A stretch of DNA of 64,000 bases from an uncultured Candidatus Berkelbacteria bacterium (GCA_903877885.1 CAIRFN010000006.1:86054-150053), one strand, 5' to 3'; shown: positions 7,237-61,346, counted from the stretch's first letter. Translations and numbers: made by a program. The notes: generated from the sequence alone by a model not told the origin.

Positions 7237-7240
7237 TATA

Positions 7241-7303
7241 GTAAAGGACTGTCCTTCCAGGTTCAACAGTACCAGGTTAAGGACTGTCCTTAAGTAATAG
7301 GTG
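7241..7303. repeat. REP/BIME-like 63-bp element: two AAGGAC-T-GTCCTT hairpins flanking CCAGGTTCAACAGTACCAGGTTA
   Basis: Perfectly identical copy at 8870-8932; single-hairpin variant at 7881-7904. Confidence 0.75.
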
Positions 7304-7308
7304 GTGAC

Positions 7309-7878
7309 ATGGGTGTATTAAAATATAAAGAATCGGCGCCAAATACATATTATCATTTGTATAATCGAGGGAATAAAAAGAAGGAAATTTTTCTTGATAA
7401 AACTGATTATCGAATTTATCTTAATCGGTTATTAAAAGCTAGTAAAAAATATAACTTTTCAATTATTGCTTATTGCCTAATGCCGAATCATTTCCATCTA
7501 ATTGTAAAGCAAAACGATTTATCCTCACCTGCGAATTTAATGGCATCAGTTAATACTAGCTACTCGATGATTTTTAATCTAAAATATAAAACAGTTGGTC
7601 ATTTATTTCAGGATCGATATAAGCAGAAAATAATCAAAGATGATCAATATATACTAAATTTAATTGCTTATATTCATTTTAATCCAGTTAATGATAAATT
7701 ATGCGTTTTCCCTAAAGAGTATTGTTGGAGTAGTTATCTGGAATATGCCGGGTTAGTGAAAAATTGGTTATGTGATAAACAGCTAATGGATAGTTTTAAT
7801 CTAAAAGGACAGTCCTTTGAGGATTATATTCGTTCGTCTTACGAAATCAGTCCGTATGATGCATTTGATCAAGATTAA
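7309..7878 (+). CDS. REP-associated tyrosine transposase (RAYT, IS200/IS605 Y1 HUH family)
   Basis: 'YHLYNRGNKKKEIF', HUH motif 'MPNHFHLIV', catalytic Tyr region 'AYIHFNPV'; flanked by REP hairpins. Confidence 0.8.
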   Translation: MGVLKYKESAPNTYYHLYNRGNKKKEIFLDKTDYRIYLNRLLKASKKYNFSIIAYCLMPNHFHLIVKQNDLSSPANLMASVNTSYSMIFNLKYKTVGHLFQDRYKQKIIKDDQYILNLIAYIHFNPVNDKLCVFPKEYCWSSYLEYAGLVKNWLCDKQLMDSFNLKGQSFEDYIRSSYEISPYDAFDQD

Positions 7879-7880
7879 TA

Positions 7881-7904
7881 GTAAAGGACTGTCCTTAAGT
7901 AATA
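7881..7904. repeat. Single-hairpin REP variant (gtaaAGGACtGTCCTTaagtaata)
   Basis: Identical to the two ends of the 63-bp repeat fused together. Confidence 0.65.
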
Positions 7905-7914
7905 AAGTAATAGG

Positions 7915-8397
7915 ATGAAATTTAAAAATATCATAGGGAATAATTATATGGAAAACAAAATTAATCAAGAACAATTTATAGAAATTGTCGAAAATATTGC
8001 AAAAGAAACAACAAAAATGTCCCAAAAGATAATTGGAGATATTTTCCCAATAAAATCATTAACAATATTTGCGCATAGCGGAAAAGAATTTGATCAATTG
8101 GTAGAAATATTATCGGAAATGGGCAAACAATATAACTATAATAATGGTCCAAGAATTGAGCTGTTCGAGCCGATTGAAGTCGAAAATAATAATGTAGAAT
8201 ATATAAGAATTAGAAAACCAGATATTGAGCGTCCGCAAATTGGTTGTAATGATTTTGAAACAAACTACGAAGATTTCAAGGAAAAATACTTATCTAAATA
8301 TCCAAATAATCTTTTTCTTATTGAGAGAACAGATTACGAGATGATTGAAATGAAAGATAAAGATTTTGATGTTTTGGCTTATGTGGTTTCTAATTAA
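7915..8397 (+). CDS. hypothetical protein (likely true start at MENK..., 7948)
   Basis: ORF inside the REP-bounded cassette; no recognisable motif. Confidence 0.4.
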   Translation: MKFKNIIGNNYMENKINQEQFIEIVENIAKETTKMSQKIIGDIFPIKSLTIFAHSGKEFDQLVEILSEMGKQYNYNNGPRIELFEPIEVENNNVEYIRIRKPDIERPQIGCNDFETNYEDFKEKYLSKYPNNLFLIERTDYEMIEMKDKDFDVLAYVVSN

Positions 8398-8414
8398 TAA
8401 ATTTTTTTAAATTT

Positions 8415-8855
8415 ATGGGAAATAAAATGAAAATTATGATTTGCGGGAGTATGAGTTTTGCTAAAGAAATGATCGAGCTTCAAAAGAAGCTTGAGGATTT
8501 TGGTCATGAAGTTTCTATTCCTTGTGATACCGATTTACATGTTGAAAAACCGGAATTTATTGACGATCTGGACAAAGACCGCGAACATTTGATTGCCAAT
8601 AATGTGATGAAAAAATGTTTTAAACTTTTAGCTAACAGCAAAACCGTTATTTTTCTTAATTTACCAAAAAATAAAATTGAAGGTTATATTGGAACATCTT
8701 CTTTGATGGAAATGGGATTGGCTTATTATTTAGGCAAAAAAATTTATTTAATGTATCCATTTCCTGATCCAAAAAACCATCGTTGGGCGCACGAAGTCGC
8801 GTCATTTATGCCAATAATTTTAGATGGTAAAATTGAAACTTTTAAAATAAATTAA
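8415..8855 (+). CDS. Nucleoside 2-deoxyribosyltransferase / DNPH1-like (SLOG-related Rossmann fold) protein
   Basis: 'MKIMICGSMSF...' N-terminus and 'GYIGTSSLMEMGLAYYLGKKIYLM' resemble the NDT/Rcl 'GT..E.G.A...GKP' motif. Confidence 0.45.
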   Translation: MGNKMKIMICGSMSFAKEMIELQKKLEDFGHEVSIPCDTDLHVEKPEFIDDLDKDREHLIANNVMKKCFKLLANSKTVIFLNLPKNKIEGYIGTSSLMEMGLAYYLGKKIYLMYPFPDPKNHRWAHEVASFMPIILDGKIETFKIN

Positions 8856-8869
8856 TTAAAAAATGAACA

Positions 8870-8932
8870 GTAAAGGACTGTCCTTCCAGGTTCAACAGTA
8901 CCAGGTTAAGGACTGTCCTTAAGTAATAGGTG
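8870..8932. repeat. REP/BIME-like 63-bp element (second perfect copy)
   Basis: Identical to 7241-7303. Confidence 0.75.
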
Positions 8933-29559: not shown

Positions 29560-29632
29560 CGGGGTGTGGCTCAGTTGGTAGAGCGCCGCTTTTGGGAAGC
29601 GGAGGTCGTGAGTTCGAGTCTCGCCACCCCGA
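29560..29632 (+). tRNA. tRNA-Pro(TGG)
   Basis: Acceptor CGGGGTG/CACCCCG, anticodon loop TTTGGGA, T-loop GTTCGAGTC. Embedded in a 19-bp extended flanking helix. Confidence 0.8.
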
Positions 29633-29652
29633 CAGATAAAAAATACAAATAT

Positions 29653-29716
29653 AGAGCGGAGGTTGTGACGATTACTTTGGTAATCGGATAGCGTTCGAGT
29701 CTCGCCACCCCGACCA
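29653..29716 (+). other. Partial duplicate of the tRNA-Pro 3' half with a 28-nt hairpin insertion, ending in CCA
   Basis: 'GAGCGGAGGT' plus insertion CGATTAC-tttg-GTAATCG plus 'GTTCGAGTCTCGCCACCCCGACCA'. Confidence 0.55.
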
Positions 29717-32839: not shown

Positions 32840-34654
32840 TTGAATATTCGAAACGTTGCTATCATTGCCCACGTCGATCATGGTAAAACTACTTTAGTTG
32901 ACGGGTTATTAAAACAATCTCACACTTTCCGTGAAAACGAAGCCGCTATGGGGCAGGTTTTGATTATGGACTCAAACGATCAAGAACGCGAACGCGGTAT
33001 TACTATTTTAGCCAAGAATACTGCTGTAAACTTTAACGATGTTAAAATTAATATTATTGATACTCCTGGTCACGCTGATTTTGGCGGTGAGGTTGAACGA
33101 ACTCTAAATATGGCTGATGGCGCGATTTTGGTGGTTGACGCTCAAGAAGGGCCAATGCCGCAAACCAAGTTTGTGCTTAAAAAAGCGATGGAAATTGGTC
33201 TGAAAGTAATTGTGGTTATCAATAAAATTGATAAAAAAGATGCTAATATTCAAACTACGATTAGCCGAATTTATGATTTATTTTTGGATTTAGCTATTAC
33301 CGATGATCAGCTCGATTTTCCAGTTTATTATGCTATTGGTCGCGAAGGTAAAGCTTGGCCCCAAATGCCAGCCGATCCAACCGCCGATGCCGATTTAACC
33401 TGTATTTTTGAAGCGATTTTAGAATATGTGCCAGCCCCAAGTCAAGATGATGCCGCTCCTTTCCAGATGTTAGTCAGCGCTCTTGATTGGGACAATTTTC
33501 AAGGTAAATATGCGATGGGCCGCATTAAACGTGGTATTGTCAAACCTGGCTTAAATGTCGCTTTGATTAATAAAGACGGCGAAATTGAAACCACTCGGAT
33601 TGATAAAATTTATTCATATCAAGGTCTAAAACGAATGGAGTTACCAGTCGCTTATTCTGGTGATATCGTTTCGATCACTGGTGTTAAAAACGCTTCAATT
33701 GGGGATACGATTGCTGATGCCGCTAACCCTGAAGCCTTGCCGATTATTAAAATTGAAGAACCAACTTTGAAAATGGCTGTTTCGGCTAATACCTCGCCAT
33801 TTGCTGGCCGCGAAGGTCAGTTTGTGACCGGTCGTCAGATTTTGGAACGAATTAAAAAAGAATTGCAGACCAACGTGGCTTTGCGTTTGGAAGAAAAAGC
33901 TGGTGAGTTTGTTCTGTCCGGTCGCGGTGAACTTCATTTGTCGGTTTTTATCGAAACTTTGCGTCGTGAAGGTTATGAATTGCAAGTTGGCAAACCTCAA
34001 GTTATTAATAAAATGATCGATGGCGTTCTTTCTGAACCAGTCGAAGAATTAACTATCGATGTTGATTCTAACTATGTTGGCGCGGTTGTTTCTGAAGTTG
34101 GTCGTCGCAAAGGTATTATGCTTAACCAAGAAGAAAATGCTGATGGTTCAACTCGGTTAATTTTTGAAATTATTACTCGTGGATTATTAGGACTTCGTAA
34201 TCAGCTTTTGACGCTTTCTAAAGGTACAGCGATTATGAACTCAATTTTCTTGCGTTTTGAACCAGTTAGCGCTGATATTCCAAAACTTCGCAATGGTGTT
34301 TTGGTTGCTTCTGGTCCAGGTAAAGCTATGACTTATGGCTTGGATATTGCTCAAGGTCGCGGTATTACTTTTATTCCACCGCAGACCGAGGTCTATGAAG
34401 GTATGATTATCGGTCAAAATGCCCGCGAAGATGATATTGAAATCAATGTGGCTAAAGAGAAAAAACAAACCAATGTTCGAGCATCTAGCTCTGATTTTGC
34501 GACAATTTTAACGCCGCCAACTGTTTTCAGTCTGGAACAATCATTAGATTTTATTGAAGATGATGAATATTTGGAAGTCACTCCTAAGAGTTTGCGACTT
34601 CGCAAAAAAATCTTGAACGGTTCCGCTCGCGCCAAACAAACCAAGAACTCCTAA
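32840..34654 (+). CDS. typA: Translational GTPase TypA/BipA
   Basis: 'IAHVDHGKTTLVD' G1, 'DTPGHADF' G3, 'NKID' G4; 604 aa. Confidence 0.9.
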   Translation: MNIRNVAIIAHVDHGKTTLVDGLLKQSHTFRENEAAMGQVLIMDSNDQERERGITILAKNTAVNFNDVKINIIDTPGHADFGGEVERTLNMADGAILVVDAQEGPMPQTKFVLKKAMEIGLKVIVVINKIDKKDANIQTTISRIYDLFLDLAITDDQLDFPVYYAIGREGKAWPQMPADPTADADLTCIFEAILEYVPAPSQDDAAPFQMLVSALDWDNFQGKYAMGRIKRGIVKPGLNVALINKDGEIETTRIDKIYSYQGLKRMELPVAYSGDIVSITGVKNASIGDTIADAANPEALPIIKIEEPTLKMAVSANTSPFAGREGQFVTGRQILERIKKELQTNVALRLEEKAGEFVLSGRGELHLSVFIETLRREGYELQVGKPQVINKMIDGVLSEPVEELTIDVDSNYVGAVVSEVGRRKGIMLNQEENADGSTRLIFEIITRGLLGLRNQLLTLSKGTAIMNSIFLRFEPVSADIPKLRNGVLVASGPGKAMTYGLDIAQGRGITFIPPQTEVYEGMIIGQNAREDDIEINVAKEKKQTNVRASSSDFATILTPPTVFSLEQSLDFIEDDEYLEVTPKSLRLRKKILNGSARAKQTKNS

Positions 34655-34676
34655 TAAATTAAATCGTTTAACCTTA

Positions 34677-34707
34677 AAGTACACCCCCGGGGTGTACTTT
34701 GGTTTTA
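34677..34707 (+). terminator. rho-independent terminator after typA
   Basis: AAAGTACACCCC-GG-GGTGTACTTT stem followed by GGTTTT. Confidence 0.65.
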
Positions 34708-34762
34708 GTACTATTTTACAGATGATATTTGTGAGATAATCAATATATCAATAAATAACAAA

Positions 34763-34856
34763 TGTCATTCTCGAGCCGAGTGGTAACTCGACATCAAGAA
34801 TCCAGAATAATTTTCCTGGATTCCAGATCTAGGTTGCCAACCTGTCTGGAATGACA
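34763..34856. repeat. MITE-like element, 94 bp, terminal inverted repeats TGTCATTC...GGAATGACA
   Basis: Homologous copy at 35640-35761; internal hairpins. Confidence 0.5.
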
Positions 34857-34874
34857 AAATTAAAAAGGAGAAAA

Positions 34875-35549
34875 ATGGAACAAAATCAAACTTCGAACTC
34901 GCCAAAATGGCTGTGGATAACTTTAATTGTTGTCGTCTTAATCGCGGCTGGATTTTTCACTTGGTTTCTTTTAATACAAAATAAACCAACTGTTTTACCT
35001 ATTGTAACACCGATTTCTACTCCAGCCACAATCGCACCGTCTGTCTTGCCATCCGCTTCTTCTTCGCCAATCTCCACCGCCGACTGGAAGACGTATACAA
35101 ATATTTTTTATAAAATTTCTTTTAAATATCCCGATAATATGTCTGCAAAAGTGTATTCTCCTGTTAAGGCAAATATGCTTAGTCCAATATCTGCTAGTCA
35201 AGAGGATCCAGATGTTTATATTTTTGAATCTGGTAAGACGACGGATCCCATTTTTGGTTTTCTATCTCAAGGTGAAACAACGGTAAATAAAGAGATAGGA
35301 AATTTAGAAACGACTAATAATCTAAATAAAAACGATGTAATTATCAACAGTAATCTTTTTATTGCTGGAAAAGTTGCTACAAAGGTGTCTGTCCCTGCTG
35401 GGAAATTGAAAGATTCTCAAGAAGCTTATGATTTTTATTTTATTCCAGTAAGCATGACACCAAACATTCAAGAAATATATCAAATAAAGATAAAAACAAC
35501 TAGCTCTATTGCCAATCAAATACTTTCCACCTTCCAATTCACCCCGTAA
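34875..35549 (+). CDS. hypothetical secreted/membrane-anchored protein
   Basis: RBS AAAGGAG; N-terminal TM then a P/S/T-rich linker. Confidence 0.45.
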   Translation: MEQNQTSNSPKWLWITLIVVVLIAAGFFTWFLLIQNKPTVLPIVTPISTPATIAPSVLPSASSSPISTADWKTYTNIFYKISFKYPDNMSAKVYSPVKANMLSPISASQEDPDVYIFESGKTTDPIFGFLSQGETTVNKEIGNLETTNNLNKNDVIINSNLFIAGKVATKVSVPAGKLKDSQEAYDFYFIPVSMTPNIQEIYQIKIKTTSSIANQILSTFQFTP

Positions 35550-35607
35550 AATTCACTCCATTCATCACGGGGCAGGCCAAATAAAATCAAAATCTAACTT
35601 CCAAAAA

Positions 35608-35637
35608 AGACTCAAGAGAACAACGAGTCTTTTTTTG
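35608..35637 (+). terminator. rho-independent terminator
   Basis: AAGACTC...GAGTCTT hairpin followed by TTTTTTT. Confidence 0.5.
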
Positions 35638-35639
35638 TT

Positions 35640-35761
35640 TGTCATCCTGGAGCCGGAGGTTACTCCGACATTCAGGATCCAGGAATAGTTCTCGACAAGC
35701 TCGAACAATAACTGGATTACACTGGATTCCAGATCTCGAGCCTCTCGGGTCTGGAATGACA
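35640..35761. repeat. MITE-like element, 122 bp, same TIRs (TGTCATCC...GGAATGACA)
   Basis: Ends and an internal hairpin conserved with the copy at 34763-34856, with compensatory changes. Confidence 0.5.
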
Positions 35762-35849
35762 TGACGATCTAACCAAAACTTAACACCTACGATGTGTTAA
35801 AAACGGTTAAGTTGCAATTTTATTCAGTTGTTTATATAATAGGTTTATT

Positions 35850-36473
35850 GTGAAAAACTTCTATTTTATTTTAGGATTAATTTTAATTATCGTGTGTTTT
35901 TGGGGTTTTGGCTCACAGAAAAAGACCGAGCAAAAAGTTGCCGGTCAAAAATCTGTGGCAGAGCCACAAACTCAAATCACACCACAGAAAGAGGAAAAAG
36001 TGAGTCAGTACAAATTCCCCGGTATTTTATCGGACGAAAAAATCAAAGGCAAAAAGGCGATCGTAAAAACTTCCAAAGGCACAATTGAATTTACTTTGGA
36101 CAATGTCCAATCGCCAAAAACCGTCAGTAATTTCGTTTATTTAAGCGAACTTAATTATTACGACAATCTAACTTTTCACCGGGTTGTCCCTGGTTTTGTG
36201 ATTCAAGGCGGCGATCCGACCGGGACTGGTTCGGGCGGACCTGGATATCAATTTGAAGATGAAAAAGTGACCTCGGACTACAAAGCGGGGACAGTAGCCA
36301 TGGCCAATGCCGGTCCGAACACTAATGGTTCGCAATTTTTCATTTGCTTAGATGATCAACCATCTTTACCAAAACAATACAATGTTTTTGGTCAAGTAAC
36401 TGTTGGCATGGACGTGGTTAAACAAATTCAAGTTGGCGATAAAATCGAATCGATTAAAATCGAAAATCAGTAA
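35850..36473 (+). CDS. ppiB: Cyclophilin-type peptidyl-prolyl cis-trans isomerase (membrane-anchored/secreted)
   Basis: 'FHRVVPGFVIQGGDPTGTGSGGPGY' and 'GTVAMANAGPNTNGSQFFI'. Confidence 0.85.
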   Translation: MKNFYFILGLILIIVCFWGFGSQKKTEQKVAGQKSVAEPQTQITPQKEEKVSQYKFPGILSDEKIKGKKAIVKTSKGTIEFTLDNVQSPKTVSNFVYLSELNYYDNLTFHRVVPGFVIQGGDPTGTGSGGPGYQFEDEKVTSDYKAGTVAMANAGPNTNGSQFFICLDDQPSLPKQYNVFGQVTVGMDVVKQIQVGDKIESIKIENQ

Positions 36474-42863: not shown

Positions 42864-43466
42864 ATTGAATGGTAGTTGTTCTAATAGCTGTTCGTGAATT
42901 TTAGTATGCCTCAACCAGATTATTTTTTTAATAATTAATGGTAATTTCTTGGTTTTTAAGAAGAAAAGATTCTGCCATGTTTGGGCTGAAATCATTTCTT
43001 CCAGATGACCTTGGATTAAATCAACTTGGTAGAAATTAGCAAAGCCAAACAAAGTTTCGGTGATTGAGCTAATACTGGCTCTAATCTCTGGTTCTGGTCC
43101 TGGTTCATCTTGATCGGCTAAGCGTCGAATTTTTTCACTTTGTTCGATCAGTGAGAAAAATCGAGTCAACGGGTCAAAACTTTCGGTGGAAACAATATTG
43201 ACAGTTTCCGGAAAATCTAACTCATTAATATAACAAAACCGAATCAAGACAAAGAGGATATCGGAAAGTTCATCGACTAATTTGTGTCGAGATTTTTGTC
43301 CATGGCGATATTTTTCCCAAATTGTCAGCATTCTTCCAAGCGAACCGATCTCTGTGACTAATTCCAAAAAAGTGGTGTCATTGGTCCAGATTCTCGGTTC
43401 AATCTTGTCAAAACCTTTGATCGTTGGGATCGAAGCTTCGATTAGTTGATCGATGTTAATGGTCAT
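42846..43466 (-). CDS. MazG-like all-alpha NTP pyrophosphohydrolase superfamily protein (divergent, tentative)
   Basis: 'W...FLELVTEIGSLGRMLTIWEKY...KLVDELSDILFVLIRFCYINELDF' resembles the MazG 'E.GEL...ELaDvl..l' pattern, but the first EExxE is degenerate. Confidence 0.4.
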   Translation of the reverse strand: MTINIDQLIEASIPTIKGFDKIEPRIWTNDTTFLELVTEIGSLGRMLTIWEKYRHGQKSRHKLVDELSDILFVLIRFCYINELDFPETVNIVSTESFDPLTRFFSLIEQSEKIRRLADQDEPGPEPEIRASISSITETLFGFANFYQVDLIQGHLEEMISAQTWQNLFFLKTKKLPLIIKKIIWLRHTKIHEQLLEQLPFNKNQTA

Positions 43467-44733
43467 TTTTTTCTCCTAACAAATCGACAAAGCAGTAAGG
43501 ATCTTCGCCATTTAGTTTGCCGGTGGCAAAATAGGCGCCGATTGGGCAGGTGCCAAAGCACTTTTTAGTCCAATATTGGCAAGAGAAACATTTTTCCGGT
43601 TTACAGGATTTAAGTTGGCGATAATTCTGCCAGGTTGGTGACTCGTGCCAGATTTTCAGCAGGCTTTCTTCAAGCAAATTACCAGCCACAAACAAGCTTT
43701 TTTCTAAGTCTGTTAGCAACTCCATTTTTTGGACTGGAGCGACTTCACAAGGAAAAACATTGCCTTGTGGTGAAACAAAAGCAAATTCTCGGCCCGCCGG
43801 ACAAGCGTGAATTCTGGGTACAATCGGGTGGGCCGGCAGATTTTCAGTGGACAATAAATCAAAATCCATTACCACTTTAGCTTTAGGATATTTTTTGCGC
43901 CAACCTTCAACCAGTCGATTGAATTCGAGTGTTTCGGCCGCGGTCAACATTTGCTTCTGAACTTCTTCATTGGCACCGCGGCCGAATGGCCTTGGATGAA
44001 TAAAATCGATCAAAAGTAAATCTAATTGCTGACAGAGTGCTAATAGTGGCTCGACTGATTGATAATTAAGACGGGACAAAACCGTGTTGATTCTGACTTT
44101 GGGAATTCCCGCCGCTTTCAAACGGCTGATTGTTGCCACAGTCTGGTCATACGATCCGCCGGGCCGGAAATTGTCATTAATCTTTTTCGGGCCGTCGAGC
44201 GAAATAATCACATCGTCGATTTGGCGTTTGCAAATTTCATGAGTTAATTCATCAGTCCAAACGCCATTACTGGCTAGGCTGGTGTAAAAACCCAATTCAA
44301 TGGCATAGTCCAAAATCTCCAAAAAGTCTGGTCGCATAGTTGGTTCTCCGCCAGTTAAACGCGCTTCGAACACGCCGACGCGATGCATCTCATCCAGAAC
44401 TTTTTTCCAGTCTTCGGTGGTCATTTCGTTTTCCAAGGCTTGACCCGCCCCGTTGTAACACATTTTGCAACGCAGGTTACATTTACGAGTTAAAACCAAG
44501 TAAAGGCGATTTGGTGCCATAATGGTTTGACTGGGATACACTCCTTGAAAAGTCTGGTGAGAGTCGCTGTTTGAATCTCCGGCTTGACAGAAAAAGCAGT
44601 TGTCTTGGTTTAGGAATGTTTCTGCCTCTTCGCTTGAGCAAGTGAAAAATCGGCGACTGACTGCATCAAATACAGTGAAATAGGAACTAATAGCCAGTTC
44701 TTGTCTGGCTCGATATCGTAGTTTACTCATCAT
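43456..44733 (-). CDS. Radical SAM / SPASM-domain enzyme with an ~85-aa N-terminal extension (RRE-like)
   Basis: 'CNLRCKMC' CX3CX2C; C-terminal Cys-rich SPASM ('CPAG...C...CFSCQYWTKKCFGTCP'). Confidence 0.8.
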   Translation of the reverse strand: MMSKLRYRARQELAISSYFTVFDAVSRRFFTCSSEEAETFLNQDNCFFCQAGDSNSDSHQTFQGVYPSQTIMAPNRLYLVLTRKCNLRCKMCYNGAGQALENEMTTEDWKKVLDEMHRVGVFEARLTGGEPTMRPDFLEILDYAIELGFYTSLASNGVWTDELTHEICKRQIDDVIISLDGPKKINDNFRPGGSYDQTVATISRLKAAGIPKVRINTVLSRLNYQSVEPLLALCQQLDLLLIDFIHPRPFGRGANEEVQKQMLTAAETLEFNRLVEGWRKKYPKAKVVMDFDLLSTENLPAHPIVPRIHACPAGREFAFVSPQGNVFPCEVAPVQKMELLTDLEKSLFVAGNLLEESLLKIWHESPTWQNYRQLKSCKPEKCFSCQYWTKKCFGTCPIGAYFATGKLNGEDPYCFVDLLGEKNDH

Positions 44734-45620
44734 ACGCTCACTTTCTCGAGTTGGTCGATAAACCAGGCCTCGAAGTCCAGCGCGGCCGAACTGCCGCTTT
44801 CCACTGCCACGTCCAGTAAATGATCTAAATACTGGTCGTAGGTTGTGGCATTGTATTCTTCCAGAGTTTTACAAAAACTCAAACCGAAAACTTCGGCCGC
44901 GCCAAATTTGAAATTGGCGTTGTTGGGAAAAGATTTAATCCGCGGTAAAACATAGGTGACTCCATTGTAAAACAACGGATTATACGGTCTGTCAATCTGG
45001 CATATAGTGTTAAAAACTTGGTTTTGACCGATTCGATCAATGGTGGAAATTTCCATAATTTGAATCGGAAAATCCAGTCGCCTGATGGTCAAATGCGGAT
45101 TAGTGTAGGCGATTCCAGTTATTTCGTTTTTAATTGCTGGTAAACCGTTTTCCACAAAAATTGATTGAGCGTGAAAATGAGGTTCAAAACTGGCGCCAGA
45201 ATTTTTCATATTGCAAAACACACTTGAACCGCATTGAGTTGAAAATTCTCTCAGAAATCGGAAGTCTTTGACTTTTGGATTCGGTCGATGCTCGTCAGTC
45301 AAAATTAAATAATGACAAATCGCCGAGCAACGGGGATGAAGCAGAAATGTCATATGATCGGATTTCGCGGTTTTAATTAAACCCGAGCCGGTTTCTTCCG
45401 GATCGCAGAGAAAACAGATTTGCTTACCGTTAGCGTCAAATTGTGGTATTGCTTGGGTTAAATACCATTTTTCAATATTTTGCGAATAAATTACGGTCAA
45501 ATATTGTCTTTTTGTCGGATCTTCTGGCCGCAAGATTTTGCGCTTGCAGACATCGTCTTTCATGGTTTGACCATGAACTTGTTCCCAGGTTTCGCGTAGA
45601 ACCGTATTTAAATCTGGCAT
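44730..45620 (-). CDS. GalT-family (HIT superfamily) nucleotidyltransferase/phosphorylase-like protein
   Basis: Zn-site-like 'QICFLCDPEE' and active-site-like 'SFEPHFHAQ' (compare GalT 'CFLC', 'SNPHPHGQ'); RBS GGGGGA before MPDLNTV. Confidence 0.6.
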   Translation of the reverse strand: MPDLNTVLRETWEQVHGQTMKDDVCKRKILRPEDPTKRQYLTVIYSQNIEKWYLTQAIPQFDANGKQICFLCDPEETGSGLIKTAKSDHMTFLLHPRCSAICHYLILTDEHRPNPKVKDFRFLREFSTQCGSSVFCNMKNSGASFEPHFHAQSIFVENGLPAIKNEITGIAYTNPHLTIRRLDFPIQIMEISTIDRIGQNQVFNTICQIDRPYNPLFYNGVTYVLPRIKSFPNNANFKFGAAEVFGLSFCKTLEEYNATTYDQYLDHLLDVAVESGSSAALDFEAWFIDQLEKVSV

Positions 45621-45746
45621 TTTCGTTTCCCCCTGATTGTTAAGGTATCTCATCCTGATTCCAATCTTCAATTTTAATTCAAGATTGGAATAAAAACCGG
45701 AGAACTTTGAAAGTCTCCGGATCTCTAAATTTACTTCAGAGATTGA

Positions 45747-47120
45747 TTAAAGATATTTTTTGTAGCAGTAAGGGTCCTGGCCATAGAGTTTGCTATTTTC
45801 GATTCGGCCACCGTTGGCAATAACCATTGCTCGGCATTTGCCTTCGCATTGCTTCATATAGAATCGACAACCGTGGCAACCGACCTTCTTGGTATTGCGG
45901 AAGTGTTCCATCGATGGGTGAAGCCAGGCTTCTTGAACTGAAGTATCGATTAAGTTCGGTCCTTTAAATTCCGGTTCATCCATCAGGAAACTGCAGGCGT
46001 TGACCGAGCCGTCAGGGCAAAGCCCAAAACCGGTTGAAAGCGCGCCGCAATCCGAATAATTGAATGGGTAAGGCAGCTCGCTTTTATCCGGGTAGTCGGG
46101 TGAGAAGCAATCCATGTTCTTGTGGATAATTTTGATACCCGATTCGCGGATGAACGTCGTTTCTCTTGTTTGTTGAACCGCTCGGCAAAATTCCATATAT
46201 TCCTCGGTGCTCAACATGGTGTCGGGAAGCCCCGTGGTACTGCGACCATATGGCCGCAGAGGCACAAAGTTCAGGTTATAACCATGCTGTGCGGCTAAAC
46301 TGGCGACATAAGGCATTTCTATTGCGTTATCGCGAGCTACGGTCATATTGATAGTGACACCGATGGTTTTCTGGTGACAACGGTTATAGTGATCCAGAAA
46401 ATCGAAAGTCCACATGATTTTGCTAAACGTGCCGAGATTGCGACGTTTGTCATTGGTTTCTTCAGTGCCTTCCAGGGAAATGATGACTTCGTCGACTCCG
46501 GCATCAGTAATATCTTTGGCTACTTGCTCGCTCCAACAGCCGTTGGTATTGAGCATCACGGCCATGCCTAAACTTTTGGCATAAGCAATAGCTTGGGGTA
46601 AGTCGTCGCAAGAAGTCGCTTCGCCGCCGGTAAAACGCCATTCCATGGTGCCAGCGAGATAAAATTTATCCATAATCTGCATTGTTTGTCCTAATGTTCG
46701 CCGGTGACTGTCAGCATTTTTGCTGGCCGCCAAACAACATTGGGGGCAATCCAGATTGCATTGTCGAGTGTAAGTGTCATAGACGCGAAGCGGGGCACTC
46801 AAACAATGTTGGGGGATAATTGGGTTTCGAACTAATCGGGTTTTGCCATTGTAAACACAGTTAACATAATCGTTATCCATGATTTCCAAGGCACCCATAT
46901 CCACAAAGCGCATAATTTCGGCGCGATCATAACCATATTTAATTAAATCTGGTATGTGTACGCCGTATGATCCGCAATGTTTAGTGATATGATCAGCTTG
47001 CAATATTTCCGCTACCATTTTATAGGTTCTGTCATCCAAAACATCGCAGCGGATTTTTTGAGCATCATGTAAGATGCCACCGAAATACTCTTTTCGAAGG
47101 GTAAAGCGCGTAGTTATCAT
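45747..47120 (-). CDS. Radical SAM / SPASM-domain enzyme with N-terminal RRE-like (PqqD-type) extension
   Basis: RBS AGGAGGTG before 'MITTRFTLRKEYFGGIL...'; 'CNLDCPQC' CX3CX2C; C-terminal SPASM cysteines. Confidence 0.8.
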   Translation of the reverse strand: MITTRFTLRKEYFGGILHDAQKIRCDVLDDRTYKMVAEILQADHITKHCGSYGVHIPDLIKYGYDRAEIMRFVDMGALEIMDNDYVNCVYNGKTRLVRNPIIPQHCLSAPLRVYDTYTRQCNLDCPQCCLAASKNADSHRRTLGQTMQIMDKFYLAGTMEWRFTGGEATSCDDLPQAIAYAKSLGMAVMLNTNGCWSEQVAKDITDAGVDEVIISLEGTEETNDKRRNLGTFSKIMWTFDFLDHYNRCHQKTIGVTINMTVARDNAIEMPYVASLAAQHGYNLNFVPLRPYGRSTTGLPDTMLSTEEYMEFCRAVQQTRETTFIRESGIKIIHKNMDCFSPDYPDKSELPYPFNYSDCGALSTGFGLCPDGSVNACSFLMDEPEFKGPNLIDTSVQEAWLHPSMEHFRNTKKVGCHGCRFYMKQCEGKCRAMVIANGGRIENSKLYGQDPYCYKKYL

Positions 47121-47130
47121 GGTCCACCTC

Positions 47131-48117
47131 CTACAGTGTCCAGTTCGGGTCTTTGGCAAAGAGTTTATCAATCAAGACTTGATAGCTGGAAAACCAGCTT
47201 TCTTTAGTCGCCAGGCAAATACCGCAACAAGCTAAGTCGGCATGGCCATCTAAACTTGATTGGCGAATCGCTTGGAATTTGTCGTTTTGCCAAATTCTGG
47301 CAATCGTCTGGTCAGGATCATTTAAATCTCCAACCAGATCGTGATCAGCCCAATCATTGAAACAAGCGTTAACTTGTCCCCAGGGATTGATGGAAAATCT
47401 TGTCCAAAGTTGTGCACAAGGCACAACTTTACTTCTGTCTTGATCGCCAATTGGCGCCAACCGTCCACCATAGGTATGGTAGGGACGAACAATTGTCATA
47501 TCGGCCAGCTTATTCCAGTAATTCAAAAAAGTTTCTTTCTCTTCCTGGAATTCCGGACAATCAACGGCCGAAACAATAATGCGGGTTTGATAACCACCGC
47601 TGTTACGCAACCGAATTAAATTAATGGCATTTTTAACTACCGTTTGAAAATAATTCGTGCCACGAAACTGTTGGTACAATTTTTCGCTAGCCGCATCAAT
47701 GCTTAATTCCAGTAGATCGATGCCAGTATCCAGAAGATTTCTGGCATAGGTGTCGTCCAAAAGGATTACATTGGTAAAACTAGTAACTCTTTTTACACCG
47801 GCTTTTTTGGCATACTTAGCCATATCAATGTAATGCGGGTGCATTAGTGGTTCGCCTCGGCCGTGAAAACGGAGAATTGACCACGGGTATTTTGCAATCT
47901 CGTCAGCGATTTTGGGAAAGAGTTTCCATGGAAAAAATGCCTTTTTCCGGGGATCGAATTCTCCAGTTTTATCTTGTCCCATTTGACCGCGGCGAGACAG
48001 TCCCACCGGGCATTTAAGACAATTGCTGTTGCAAATGTAATGCTCTAAAGCAATTTGAACGACAACAGGAAATTCCTGCTCTTCACTGGTTTGAAAACCA
48101 TAGCTGAAATCTTTCAT
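47131..48117 (-). CDS. Radical SAM enzyme with SPASM/twitch-like C-terminal cysteines, no N-terminal extension
   Basis: 'CNSNCLKC' CX3CX2C at residue ~28; C-terminal 'C...C...CCGIC'; RBS AAAGGAGG. Confidence 0.7.
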   Translation of the reverse strand: MKDFSYGFQTSEEQEFPVVVQIALEHYICNSNCLKCPVGLSRRGQMGQDKTGEFDPRKKAFFPWKLFPKIADEIAKYPWSILRFHGRGEPLMHPHYIDMAKYAKKAGVKRVTSFTNVILLDDTYARNLLDTGIDLLELSIDAASEKLYQQFRGTNYFQTVVKNAINLIRLRNSGGYQTRIIVSAVDCPEFQEEKETFLNYWNKLADMTIVRPYHTYGGRLAPIGDQDRSKVVPCAQLWTRFSINPWGQVNACFNDWADHDLVGDLNDPDQTIARIWQNDKFQAIRQSSLDGHADLACCGICLATKESWFSSYQVLIDKLFAKDPNWTL

Positions 48118-48128
48118 CTCAACCTCCT

Positions 48129-49406
48129 TTAGCGGTTGTCTGGTAACGTTTGGGCCCAGCTTCGTTGGAGTTTTCGCTCCATGGTCTCGATGACCAAATC
48201 ACGCCAAACCTCCACATCCTGTGGTGTAAAATATTCGGTTTGGACAACATAACAAGTGCTCCTGCCTCGACCGACTTGAATATATTTACTGTAATCGCGG
48301 TCAATTGTGGCGCCATATGCCTCGGGATTTTCCCAGACTGCTGTTCCCGGATAGGGAATAAACGGATAAACCACGAATTCATCAAACGGACAATTTTTTA
48401 ATCCTTCAATAGATTCGTAGATAGTTTCTTCTGTTTCACCAGGAAAACCAACCAGAATATAAATTCTAACTTTTAATCCGGCGGCTTTGGCGTTTTGAAT
48501 GGCTTTTAGATTAGTCTCGGCTCGAGTTTGTTTTCCCAAAATAGAAAGCATTTTATTAGACATACTTTCCACACCAATAGCGACATGACGACAACCACTT
48601 TGAGCTAACTGCTCGCAGGCGGTTGAGTTTAAGTTATTGGCTCTGGCAAAAACTCGATAGAGAATATCTAGCGGCGCAATTGCTTTGGTCATTTCGGTAA
48701 TACGATGCGGCGAAAAGGTAAATAAGTCATCACTAAAACGGAAATTGGTTGTGCCGAAATTCGCGTTTAAACTTTGAATTTCAGTGACAACATTTTCCGG
48801 TGAGCGAAATCTTAATTGACCTCGACTAAACACCAGGCTGTTACAAAATTTGCAATTGTATGGACAACCCCGGCTAGAAATCAAACTAATACTTGGTTTT
48901 GTCTCTACAATTCGATTGTAACTAGCTAAATCGGTCAAATCATAATTTGGAAAAGGTAATCGATCTAAATCCTGAAGTGGTTGACCAACTAAAATACCTT
49001 TGGCTAGATAGCCATTGGCTTTGTAATTGGTAATTACTTCAGGAAAAGTTTGATCAGCCTCGCCAGTAATAATTAAATCAAAATCTTTGGCCGATTCGAC
49101 AGCAAGCGCACTAACATGCGGCCCGCCAGCAATAGTTAAAGCTTGCGGGTTAATATTTTGCAATATTAAATTTTTTATTTCCAAAGTTCGCGCGTAAGTT
49201 ACCGAATAAGTCGAGAAAGCATAAATTTTAGCGGCAGGGATTTGTTCGAGCCACTTGGTTGAGTCGAGGCCTGACAGATCGCAGATCTGACAAGAAATGC
49301 CCATTTTTTGAACAAGAGTGGCCAGGTAAAGAATGCCGAGTGGCGCTTCAAGCCGATCGTCATTTAATTCCGGGCACGGTGTGTTGACGAAAACTACGTC
49401 ACGCAT
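48129..49406 (-). CDS. B12-binding-domain radical SAM enzyme (class B)
   Basis: N-terminal Rossmann-like B12-binding region; 'CPYNCKFC' CX3CX2C; RBS GGGGGA. Confidence 0.75.
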   Translation of the reverse strand: MRDVVFVNTPCPELNDDRLEAPLGILYLATLVQKMGISCQICDLSGLDSTKWLEQIPAAKIYAFSTYSVTYARTLEIKNLILQNINPQALTIAGGPHVSALAVESAKDFDLIITGEADQTFPEVITNYKANGYLAKGILVGQPLQDLDRLPFPNYDLTDLASYNRIVETKPSISLISSRGCPYNCKFCNSLVFSRGQLRFRSPENVVTEIQSLNANFGTTNFRFSDDLFTFSPHRITEMTKAIAPLDILYRVFARANNLNSTACEQLAQSGCRHVAIGVESMSNKMLSILGKQTRAETNLKAIQNAKAAGLKVRIYILVGFPGETEETIYESIEGLKNCPFDEFVVYPFIPYPGTAVWENPEAYGATIDRDYSKYIQVGRGRSTCYVVQTEYFTPQDVEVWRDLVIETMERKLQRSWAQTLPDNR

Positions 49407-56550: not shown

Positions 56551-56730
56551 TAATTTTAGCGAGTACGGGATTTACGGACAGCTCGGAAACCCACGGTTTT
56601 CCGACGTCCGGCATAAATGTCGGACTGCCTTCCTCTAGCGGTAAACCTCTGGTTTCCCGACCCCTTCCTGGTCCGAATCCCAAATCTACATTAAAGCAAA
56701 AAATTCACCGAAATGGTGAATCCTTTGCTT

Positions 56731-56804
56731 TAGCGCGTGCGGGATTCGAACCCGCGATCTACAGAATGAAAATCTGTTATCCTAGGCCTCTAGACGAACG
56801 CGCC
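56731..56804 (-). tRNA. tRNA-Glu(TTC)
   Basis: Minus strand: acceptor GGCGCGT, classic Glu D-arm 'TTCGTCTAGAGGCCTAGGA', anticodon loop TTTTCAT, T-loop GGGTTCGAATCCC. Followed by a hairpin plus T-run terminator (56700-56730). Confidence 0.85.
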
Positions 56805-56808
56805 ACAT

Positions 56809-57066
56809 CTATATTGTTAAGCTATCTCCGATATTTTCCTTTAAAAAATCTCTTTGCCCACCTTTTTTCTTAAGATTGATTTCTCTTCGACGAGCATCTT
56901 TCTCGGATAGATACGCCTCGTAATAAATCAATTTGTAAGGTTTATGCTTATTTGTGTAATTTACTTTTCCTAAGTTGTGTTCGATTAATCGTCTTTTAAT
57001 GTCATTACTATAACCAGTATAAGTGGTGTTGTCTCCAATACTTTTAATCAAATAGACGTAATACAT
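56809..57066 (-). CDS. GIY-YIG nuclease family small protein (UPF0213/YhbQ-like)
   Basis: 'YYVYLIKS...TYTGYSNDIKRRLIEHN' GIY...YIG motif; 85 aa. Confidence 0.8.
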   Translation of the reverse strand: MYYVYLIKSIGDNTTYTGYSNDIKRRLIEHNLGKVNYTNKHKPYKLIYYEAYLSEKDARRREINLKKKGGQRDFLKENIGDSLTI

Positions 57067-57067
57067 T

Positions 57068-57125
57068 TCAGGCCTCTAGCCCGCTAACCGCGGGTCCGCG
57101 TATAGCGGAACGAACGCGCCACATC
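57068..57125 (-). other. Duplicated tRNA-Glu 5' segment (acceptor plus D-arm start) interrupted by a 30-nt twin-hairpin insertion
   Basis: Plus strand 'ggcctctag[cccgctaaccgcgggtccgcgtatagcgga]acgaacgcgccacatcta' against tRNA-Glu 'ggcctctagacgaacgcgccacatcta'. Confidence 0.55.
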
Positions 57126-57265
57126 TAAAAATATTATATCATATTTTATCTCAATTGTCTATAACTTCTCAGTCTTGAAAGCTTGATTTTATGTTGAATT
57201 TTTGATACGATTAGTATGAAATGTATGAATTTAATTAAAATTATAAAAGGATAAAAAGTTCTAAT

Positions 57266-61204: not shown

Positions 61205-61276
61205 GGGCCGGTAGCTCAGTGGTAGAGCAGCTGACTCTTAATCAGCTTGTCGTGAGTCCGATCCTCACCCGGCCCT
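61205..61276 (+). tRNA. tRNA-Lys(CTT)
   Basis: Acceptor GGGCCGG/CCGGCCC, anticodon stem GCTGA/TCAGC, loop CTCTTAA; CCA encoded. Confidence 0.85.
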
Positions 61277-61313
61277 CCATGGGGTGTTGAAAATTTCAGA
61301 CACGGGTAGCAAT

Positions 61314-61346
61314 TTGTCGTGAGTCCGATCCTCACCTGGCCCTCCA
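61314..61346 (+). other. Duplicate of the tRNA-Lys 3' end (33 nt, 1 mismatch) about 37 nt downstream of the gene
   Basis: 'TTGTCGTGAGTCCGATCCTCACCTGGCCCTCCA' against the tRNA '...CACCCGGCCCTCCA'. Confidence 0.6.

Follow-up and report, generated by a model that had tools for sequence, protein, structure and literature searches.

The Neisseria Transformation Sequence (NTS; CGTCATTCCCGCGMAVGCGGGAATCYRG), which contains the older dRS3 repeat, folds as a hairpin and is cut solely as single-stranded DNA (ssDNA) by SsnA, a 94-aa GIY-YIG nuclease, a few bases 5′ of the motif (PMC11893778). Cutting depends most on the three bases before the NTS palindrome and binding most on the C after it; related repeats, the Ssn-related motifs (SRMs), occur in various phyla on both sides of ssnA homologues, which gives an NTS-ssnA-NTS layout (PMC11893778). 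The NTS/Ssn system was described in 2025 (Nat Commun), mainly in Proteobacteria; the underlying survey covered RefSeq representative genomes, and its main text neither mentions Patescibacteria or candidate phyla nor discusses a gene-less doublet form of the repeat (PMC11893778). Here we analyse two homologous repeat elements, copy A and copy B, in a 64,000-nt stretch of DNA from an uncultured Candidatus Berkelbacteria bacterium (GCA_903877885.1 CAIRFN010000006.1:86054-150053), which we call the window. We find that the two copies are probably gene-less doublets of NTS/SRM-type hairpin repeats of the kind that go with Ssn GIY-YIG nucleases.

Copy A (34763-34856, plus strand, 94 nt) is a complete doublet made of a left unit, a 10-nt spacer and an inverted right unit. 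Copy B (35640-35761, plus strand, 122 nt) is also complete, with a 39-nt spacer between its left unit and its inverted right unit. Direct reading agreed with the coordinates and sequences that a first-pass annotation of the window had given for both elements. Copy A begins with TGTCATTC and copy B with TGTCATCC, both starting in the form TGTCAT(T/C)C, and both end in GGAATGACA. The motif GGATTCCAGATCT, which had been described as shared, is present exactly twice in the window, once per copy. When aligned, the copies show 77% column identity and a single 29-nt indel, and sensitive local searches of the 64-kb window, including blastn-short, gave no further copy. As had also been proposed, the copies flank a gene (34875-35549), each lying just after an intrinsic terminator. 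The typA terminator (34674-34702, plus strand, from the terminator scan) lies 60 nt upstream of copy A, and the 3′ end of copy A falls 18 nt before the ATG of the flanked gene. At the other end of this gene, its terminator-like hairpin (GACTC..GAGTC) and T-run (~35605-35636, plus strand; read from the sequence and not listed by the terminator scan) abut copy B, which precedes the promoter-like site of the cyclophilin gene (35812-35840).

Each element consists of two inverted hairpin units of the form TGTC-ATTCC..loop..GGAAT-CCAG and is not a simple terminal inverted repeat (TIR) element. The units were located with a flank-plus-stem detector (GTC + stem + C), and their loops range from 3 to ~50 nt; the loose detector has a background of ~6 matches per shuffled window, and only matches with a CCAG tail were counted. 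Every doublet carries one unit on the top strand, TGTC-ATxCC..loop..GGxAT-CCAG, and a second, different unit that reads likewise on the bottom strand. The left unit of copy A (34763-34805, plus strand), T-GTC-ATTCTCGAG..nested hairpin..ATCAAGAAT-CCAG, has an 8-bp stem with 1 mismatch and an extended loop, which holds the nested hairpin CGAGT-GGTA-ACTCG (34777-34790, plus strand) that the annotation had singled out as covarying. The right unit of copy A (34816-34856, minus strand), TGTC-ATTCCAGA-C-AGGTTGGCAACCT-AGA-TCTGGAAT-CCAG, has a perfect 8-bp stem. In copy B, the stem detector and a pair count identify the left unit (35640-35682, plus strand) as T-GTC-ATCCTGGAG..nested hairpin..ATTCAGGAT-CCAG, with the nested hairpin CGGAG-GTTA-CTCCG at 35654-35667, and the stem detector and the DNA fold identify the right unit (35722-35761, minus strand) as TGTC-ATTCCAGA-CC-CGAGAGGCTCG-AGA-TCTGGAAT-CCAG. 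Stems of the window units are at least 8 bp long with 0-1 defects. Stem detection assigns the sequences previously taken for TIRs to the outer arms of two NTS/SRM-type hairpin units, separate and inverted, and the supposed internal motif GGATTCCAGATCT to the inner arm of the right unit. A fold check, which had been suggested and was run here, found both copies strongly folded on both strands compared with shuffles, with z of -3.5 to -6.3 for RNA folding and -3.4 to -4.9 for DNA folding, the latter recovering the unit hairpins.

The base pairing of these hairpins is maintained by compensatory changes. The claimed difference between CGAGT-ggta-ACTCG and CGGAG-gtta-CTCCG in the nested hairpin is real and is supported by a third version, CGGAT-tgta-ATCCG, from Berkelbacteria GW2011_GWE1_39_12 (locus L006; collected loci carry L numbers). 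All 5 pairs are kept in all 3 sequences, and 3 of the 5 are changed on both sides. In an alignment of 33 distinct units cut back to the basal stem, pairing holds in 89% of cells, a percentage that is partly circular because pairing had been a criterion in choosing the units; this circularity does not extend to the variety of compensated stems. Double-change cells in this alignment number 63, as compared to 20.4 in shuffles, and sliding the partner collapses the pairing. The left units vary widely across loci yet retain GTC before the stem and C(CAG) after it, and the covarying stem forms include ATTCCCGC/GCGGGAAT, ATCCCAGC/GCTGGGAT, ATACCGGC/GCCGGTAT, ATCCTGAA/TTCAGGAT, and ATTCTCGG/CCGAGGAT.

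The units of the window also carry the flanks of NTS. All 4 have these flanks in the NTS orientation, with TGTC before a palindrome that starts ATTCC or ATCC and with CCAG after it. At other loci, the partners of the window-type right unit are canonical NTS or strict SRM, such as TGTCATTCCCGCGAAAGCGGGAATCCAG in L040 and L008. Using the published SRM pattern, HGTCWYN(0-2)YYVSBRHN(0-5)WNVSBRGN(0-2)RNCYNB, and the NTS consensus tested at <=1 mismatch, we observed SRM/NTS matches among partner units (L002, L008, L031, L040) and among the flanks of nuclease cassettes (L065, L066, L068).

Copies of the element occur well beyond this locus. The 22-base gapped pattern GGATTCCAGATCT-N(5-30)-GGAATGACA matches 10 loci in one-genome-per-species references (Saccharibacteria, other Patescibacteria, Berkelbacteria, Roseibium, Leptospirales, Smithella, and Pseudobdellovibrionaceae) and 45 in metagenome contigs, and this recurrence indicates that the elements are not chance. 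As for a viral origin, the pattern had no match in 2.9 million viral contigs. Overall, ~60 further copies are found in Patescibacteria, Proteobacteria, Leptospirales, and Bdellovibrionota, and the annotation's own reservation, that only two copies might exist, is not borne out, either in this genome or at these other loci. At most pattern loci a left unit lies 15-100 nt upstream and completes a doublet; a few loci have a single unit. Taking the doublets in left-to-right orientation, the neighbouring genes are (+,+) in 9 cases, (-,-) in 5, convergent in 4, and divergent in 2; the occurrence of both orientations fits an element that acts at the DNA level. A separate set of near-identical doublets comes from Ga0265296 and related samples (L017, L023, L024, L028, L029, L033, L042, L044, L045, L054). 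These lie on at least 6 different long contigs, have inverted symmetry that extends beyond the units (..AATTCCGAT../..ATCGGAATT..), and form a high-copy, recently expanded population of the same repeat family.

In relatives, units of this kind flank small nuclease genes. We identified seven independent metagenomic GIY-YIG loci (L051/L074, L037, L065, L066, L068-73, L078, L079), and all seven have a forward unit upstream and an inverted unit downstream of a gene encoding 95-125 aa. Two of these cassettes came from the pattern-derived loci, namely L051 (unit, 95-aa gene, inverted unit) and L037 (unit, 98-aa gene, inverted unit), and five are further independent homologues with units on both sides (P0148, P0161, P0202, P0146, P0147). 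The downstream unit of L065 and the upstream unit of L066 are NTS with 1 mismatch. The cassette proteins match Pfam GIY-YIG and are mostly 94-98 aa long, with P0147 at 125 aa. Their catalytic residues (Y7, Y18, and E65 in proteins of 94-95 aa) have the spacing of Y6, Y17, and E64 in the 94-aa Neisseria SsnA, and in NCBIfam they have a weak, sub-threshold match to a group I intron endonuclease model. The L051 protein has >1000 homologues, most of 94-98 aa, named in Kuenenbacteria, Taylorbacteria, Omnitrophica, Chloroflexi, and others.

The doublets and the cassettes are connected at the level of individual units. A segment at the right end of copy A (34814-34860) is 100% identical over 44-45 nt to both flanks of the L074/L051 cassette, which lies on a contig recovered from different samples than the window; nothing else in the rest of the 20-kb L074 locus matches the window. 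The left unit of L079 differs from the right unit of copy A by a single 1-nt indel, L037 has the same difference between left and right units as the window copies, and at the Kuenenbacteria loci the cassette is followed immediately by a gene-less doublet of its own left and right units. The L074 locus contains, in addition, a doublet of a second unit type at 7772-7876, with the tails CTCC/CTTA instead of CCAG and with ATCCTGAA.. and ATCCCGAA.. stems. Since this is the genome of the identical cassette, more than one repeat subfamily coexists in one genome.

The genome of the window contains a third doublet. Situated ~1.1 kb to the left of window position 1 (L076 7119-7283), with greA on one side and lysS on the other, it has kept its left unit, TGTCATCCCAGACGGGTAGGTTACCTGATCTGGGATCCAG, intact, and its right unit is decayed and ends in GGGATGACA; the greA terminator sits within the spacer of this doublet. 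The organism recurs in many samples, with contigs (L056-L063) that are 99.8-100% identical to the window and give no polymorphism. Of eight independent same-strain assemblies, five (L057, L060-L063) end inside copy A or within ~13 nt after it (34803-34869), which suggests that the genome or community holds further copies of the unit. The window TypA places the organism among Patescibacteria, and its best named relative, from Berkelbacteria, is 74% identical. Gene order downstream of typA is not shared by the closest relatives in TypA (79-86% identity). In the two closest for which gene tables exist (83-86% TypA identity), typA is followed by only ~50 nt, and in a third (79% identity) by no gap at all. 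Other genes come next, so that the second reservation of the first-pass annotation, that relatives might have the same sequence at the same place, is not borne out either.

Besides the partial circularity of the pairing percentage, a number of points weigh against the reading of copies A and B as NTS/SRM-type doublets of the Ssn system. The 4 window units match neither the SRM pattern, even with a loop of up to 40 nt, nor the NTS consensus. Their loops are longer, with nested hairpins, and their stems are of the CCAGA/TCTGG or CTCGAG type. No Ssn-type gene was found in the ~84 kb readable for this genome (the window and extra flank, with ~8 kb newly read on the left and ~9 kb on the right). 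Membership of the cassette proteins in the Ssn family (CDD cd10448) is a prediction from their size, Pfam GIY-YIG, residue spacing, and flanking NTS. Finally, a preprint treats the Neisseria dRS3/NTS (ATTCCCGCGCAGGCGGGAATC) as a REPIN of a Group 2 RAYT (10.1101/2021.07.10.451892).

Of the rival explanations, that of REPINs is the least improbable. REPINs are inverted doublets of REP (repetitive extragenic palindromic) sequences, copied by a RAYT (REP-associated tyrosine transposase) such as the one encoded in the window at 7309-7878 (Pfam Y1_Tnp 1.3e-13; NCBIfam REP_Tyr_transpos 1.7e-19, below the curated cut-off). Two inverted hairpin units <130 bp apart are by definition a REPIN, and the units here are separated by 10 nt (copy A) and 39 nt (copy B). 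A RAYT usually has its cognate REPs on either side. The window RAYT, however, is flanked by its own, unrelated exact 64-nt repeats (7240-7303, 8869-8932) of AAGGACTGTCCTT palindromes. Moreover, ~345 kb around 55 pattern-derived loci contain one RAYT homologue (L008), which has no flanking NTS-like units, whereas all 7 of the Ssn-type genes considered have such units on both sides. The REP/RAYT system at 7240-8932 is separate from the NTS-like doublets, and we consider it improbable that the doublets are RAYT-copied REPINs. The 64-nt direct repeats of that system bracket the RAYT and two small open reading frames (ORFs) after it and contain two AAGGACTGTCCTT palindromes each; a partial third copy is present at 7871-7896, and an independent assembly (L076) breaks within the repeat at window position 7269.

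Structured RNA is slightly less probable again. The doublets would in this case be 3′ or 5′ untranslated-region elements that stabilise or regulate the mRNA of the flanked gene, or small RNAs, and the strong RNA folds (z down to -6.3), the compensated base pairs, and the positions of copy A, 18 nt upstream of a start codon, and copy B, directly after the terminator of the gene, are all what such RNAs would show. Both copies, however, are downstream of intrinsic terminators, and doublets elsewhere occur in both orientations to their neighbours and also between convergent and divergent genes. A scan of the window at the Rfam gathering threshold gave tRNAs only, and over 34600-35900 Rfam hits at E<=10 were noise (E 5 to 9). 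By inspection, the G-T/U wobbles are split between the strands and favour no single transcribed strand. The conserved letters, GTC before and C after the palindrome, are those key to ssDNA binding and cutting by SsnA, an enzyme that is inactive on RNA.

The weakest rival, which we regard as very improbable, holds that the copies are classical miniature inverted-repeat transposable elements (MITEs), deletion derivatives of a DDE-transposase insertion sequence recognised via 8-9-bp TIRs; they do have terminal inverted repeats (TGTCATTC/GAATGACA), a small size, and AT-rich intergenic sites, but these repeats are outer arms of internal hairpins and not free ends, the copies are merely 77% identical, no target-site duplication is seen (AACAAA before and AAATTA after copy A, TTTGTT before and TGACGA after copy B), and the gene-bearing relatives all encode a GIY-YIG nuclease (~95 aa), with no DDE transposase in any. 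The check for target-site duplications that had been recommended likewise found no direct repeat at the flanks of the L051 cassette. What holds of the first-pass annotation's MITE-like TIR reading is that the elements are repeated, structured, and intergenic with inverted ends; its TIRs are not transposase-binding terminal repeats. As an analogy, "MITE-like" is fair because gene-bearing, autonomous-looking relatives exist.

Reading the copies as NTS/SRM-type doublets leads to a possible mechanism, modelled on Neisseria. The units would act at the DNA level, with the hairpin forming whenever replication, repair, or DNA uptake makes the region single-stranded. A cognate Ssn nuclease would bind the unit hairpin and cut a few bases 5′ of GTCAT, as Neisseria SsnA does in vitro, and a doublet would offer one cuttable site per strand. 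The pair of doublets around 34875-35549 would correspond to the NTS-gene-NTS layout, which in Neisseria makes integration of transforming DNA less frequent. In its full-length form, the element would enclose a ~95-aa Ssn-type GIY-YIG gene with one unit at each end; the window copies would be these two ends minus the gene, and the doublets may have been derived from the cassette by gene loss or by copying in trans. Together, the Ssn cassette and the gene-less doublets could even be an autonomous/non-autonomous pair, that is, a class of mobile element without a transposase that copies via ssDNA hairpins with a ~95-aa GIY-YIG nuclease and spreads horizontally among candidate phyla and beyond. We hold this last proposal to be rather doubtful and leave it open because 44-45 nt are shared with a cassette, the same unit asymmetry is seen with and without the gene, and several phyla are involved.

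The locus probably extends the Ssn/NTS system to the tiny genomes of Patescibacteria, organisms believed to rely on taking up DNA. Repeat variants of the window type are missed by the published SRM search pattern, and these variant units, together with their nucleases, are candidates for new ssDNA-cutting specificities. The doublet-gene-doublet layout around a fast-evolving exported protein is cleanly interpretable and testable, and the identical 44-45-mers that tie gene-less doublets to cassettes make the mobility of the Ssn cassette directly testable. The locus also bears on two competing readings of the Neisseria repeats, as REPINs of RAYTs and as Ssn targets.

The flanked gene itself (34875-35549, plus strand) encodes a 224-aa protein with an N-terminal hydrophobic anchor and no Pfam family. 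The protein is poorly conserved and has distant homologues only. The gene has a GC skew of -0.08 to -0.19 and a slightly lower GC content, and the skew of the adjoining plus-strand genes is positive, so that the bracketed segment may have been inverted or be foreign in origin.

A strict GIY..YIG regex search of the window for a cognate nuclease gave nothing useful, and the sole GIY-YIG ORF in the ~84 kb, taken from the ORF list, is at 56809-57066 (minus strand, 85 aa, Pfam 1.6e-14). We rejected it as the cognate nuclease: it is UPF0213-like, nearer to UPF0213 (PDB 1zg2, 1.2e-7) than to the cassette proteins (1e-6 to 3e-8) and also nearer to UPF0213 than those proteins are, and has no flanking NTS-like units. 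This ORF ends 4 nt before tRNA-Glu(UUC) (56731-56804, minus strand) and is bracketed by a ~28-nt direct repeat of the 5′ part of the tRNA (56785-56812 and 57071-57128), the upstream copy of which is broken by a GC-rich hairpin of 30 nt. The arrangement resembles the insertion of a small nuclease gene on the 5′ flank of a tRNA gene, with the target duplicated. Between a terminator and this tRNA-Glu lies a GC-rich, hairpin-rich stretch (56560-56700) that contains no ORF and has no Rfam match at E<=1. Two other tRNA genes are intact and have duplicates of their 3′ ends just downstream, one exact (29612-29633 duplicated at 29693-29714) and one at 97% (61247-61279 duplicated at 61314-61346), and these duplicates are possible attachment-site scars. 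Elsewhere in the window, a region at 43456-49406 encodes three radical SAM/SPASM proteins and small unannotated genes beside an ABC ATPase (gene table of L056) and looks like a peptide-modification cluster.

The doublets of the window can be compared with several known systems. IS200/IS605 elements and their palindrome-associated derivatives share with them differing left and right sub-terminal hairpins read as ssDNA, the absence of target-site duplications, and short gene-less derivatives. In IS200/IS605, however, a Y1 transposase cuts both ends on one strand, whereas here each strand carries one of the two hairpins and the enzyme belongs to the GIY-YIG family; Ssn cassettes, moreover, are not known to transpose. 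The REPINs of Bertels & Rainey are similar in having two close inverted hairpin repeats, many copies per genome, no target-site duplication, and a proposed ssDNA mechanism, and differ in their associated protein, which is an HUH/Y1 transposase and not a GIY-YIG nuclease. The dRS3/NIME arrays of Neisseria (ATTCCC-N8-GGGAAT flanking short RS segments) resemble the window copies in having a variable segment between inverted ATTCC..GGAAT palindromes, and their enrichment beside variable surface-protein genes counts as a further likeness to the layout found here. In contrast to dRS3/NIMEs, the window units are of the ATTCCAGA/TCTGGAAT, ATTCTCGAG, and ATCCTGGAG types with long loops, contain no strict dRS3 20-mer, and occur in another phylum. 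The closest match is to NTS/SRM. Like these, the window units are oriented, intergenic hairpin repeats of the form (C/T)GTC-ATTCC..GGAAT-C(YRG), and like NTS around Neisseria surface-protein genes they pair around a gene. They differ in hairpin length (35-37 nt with a nested stem-loop, compared to 20 nt in NTS) and in their host, a Patescibacteria/Berkelbacteria-like genome of a kind to which the main text on the Ssn survey makes no reference. The gene-less doublet form is already known in Neisseria as "REPIN" or NIME; what is new here is a probable Ssn/NTS system in a new lineage, with unit variants outside the published SRM pattern.

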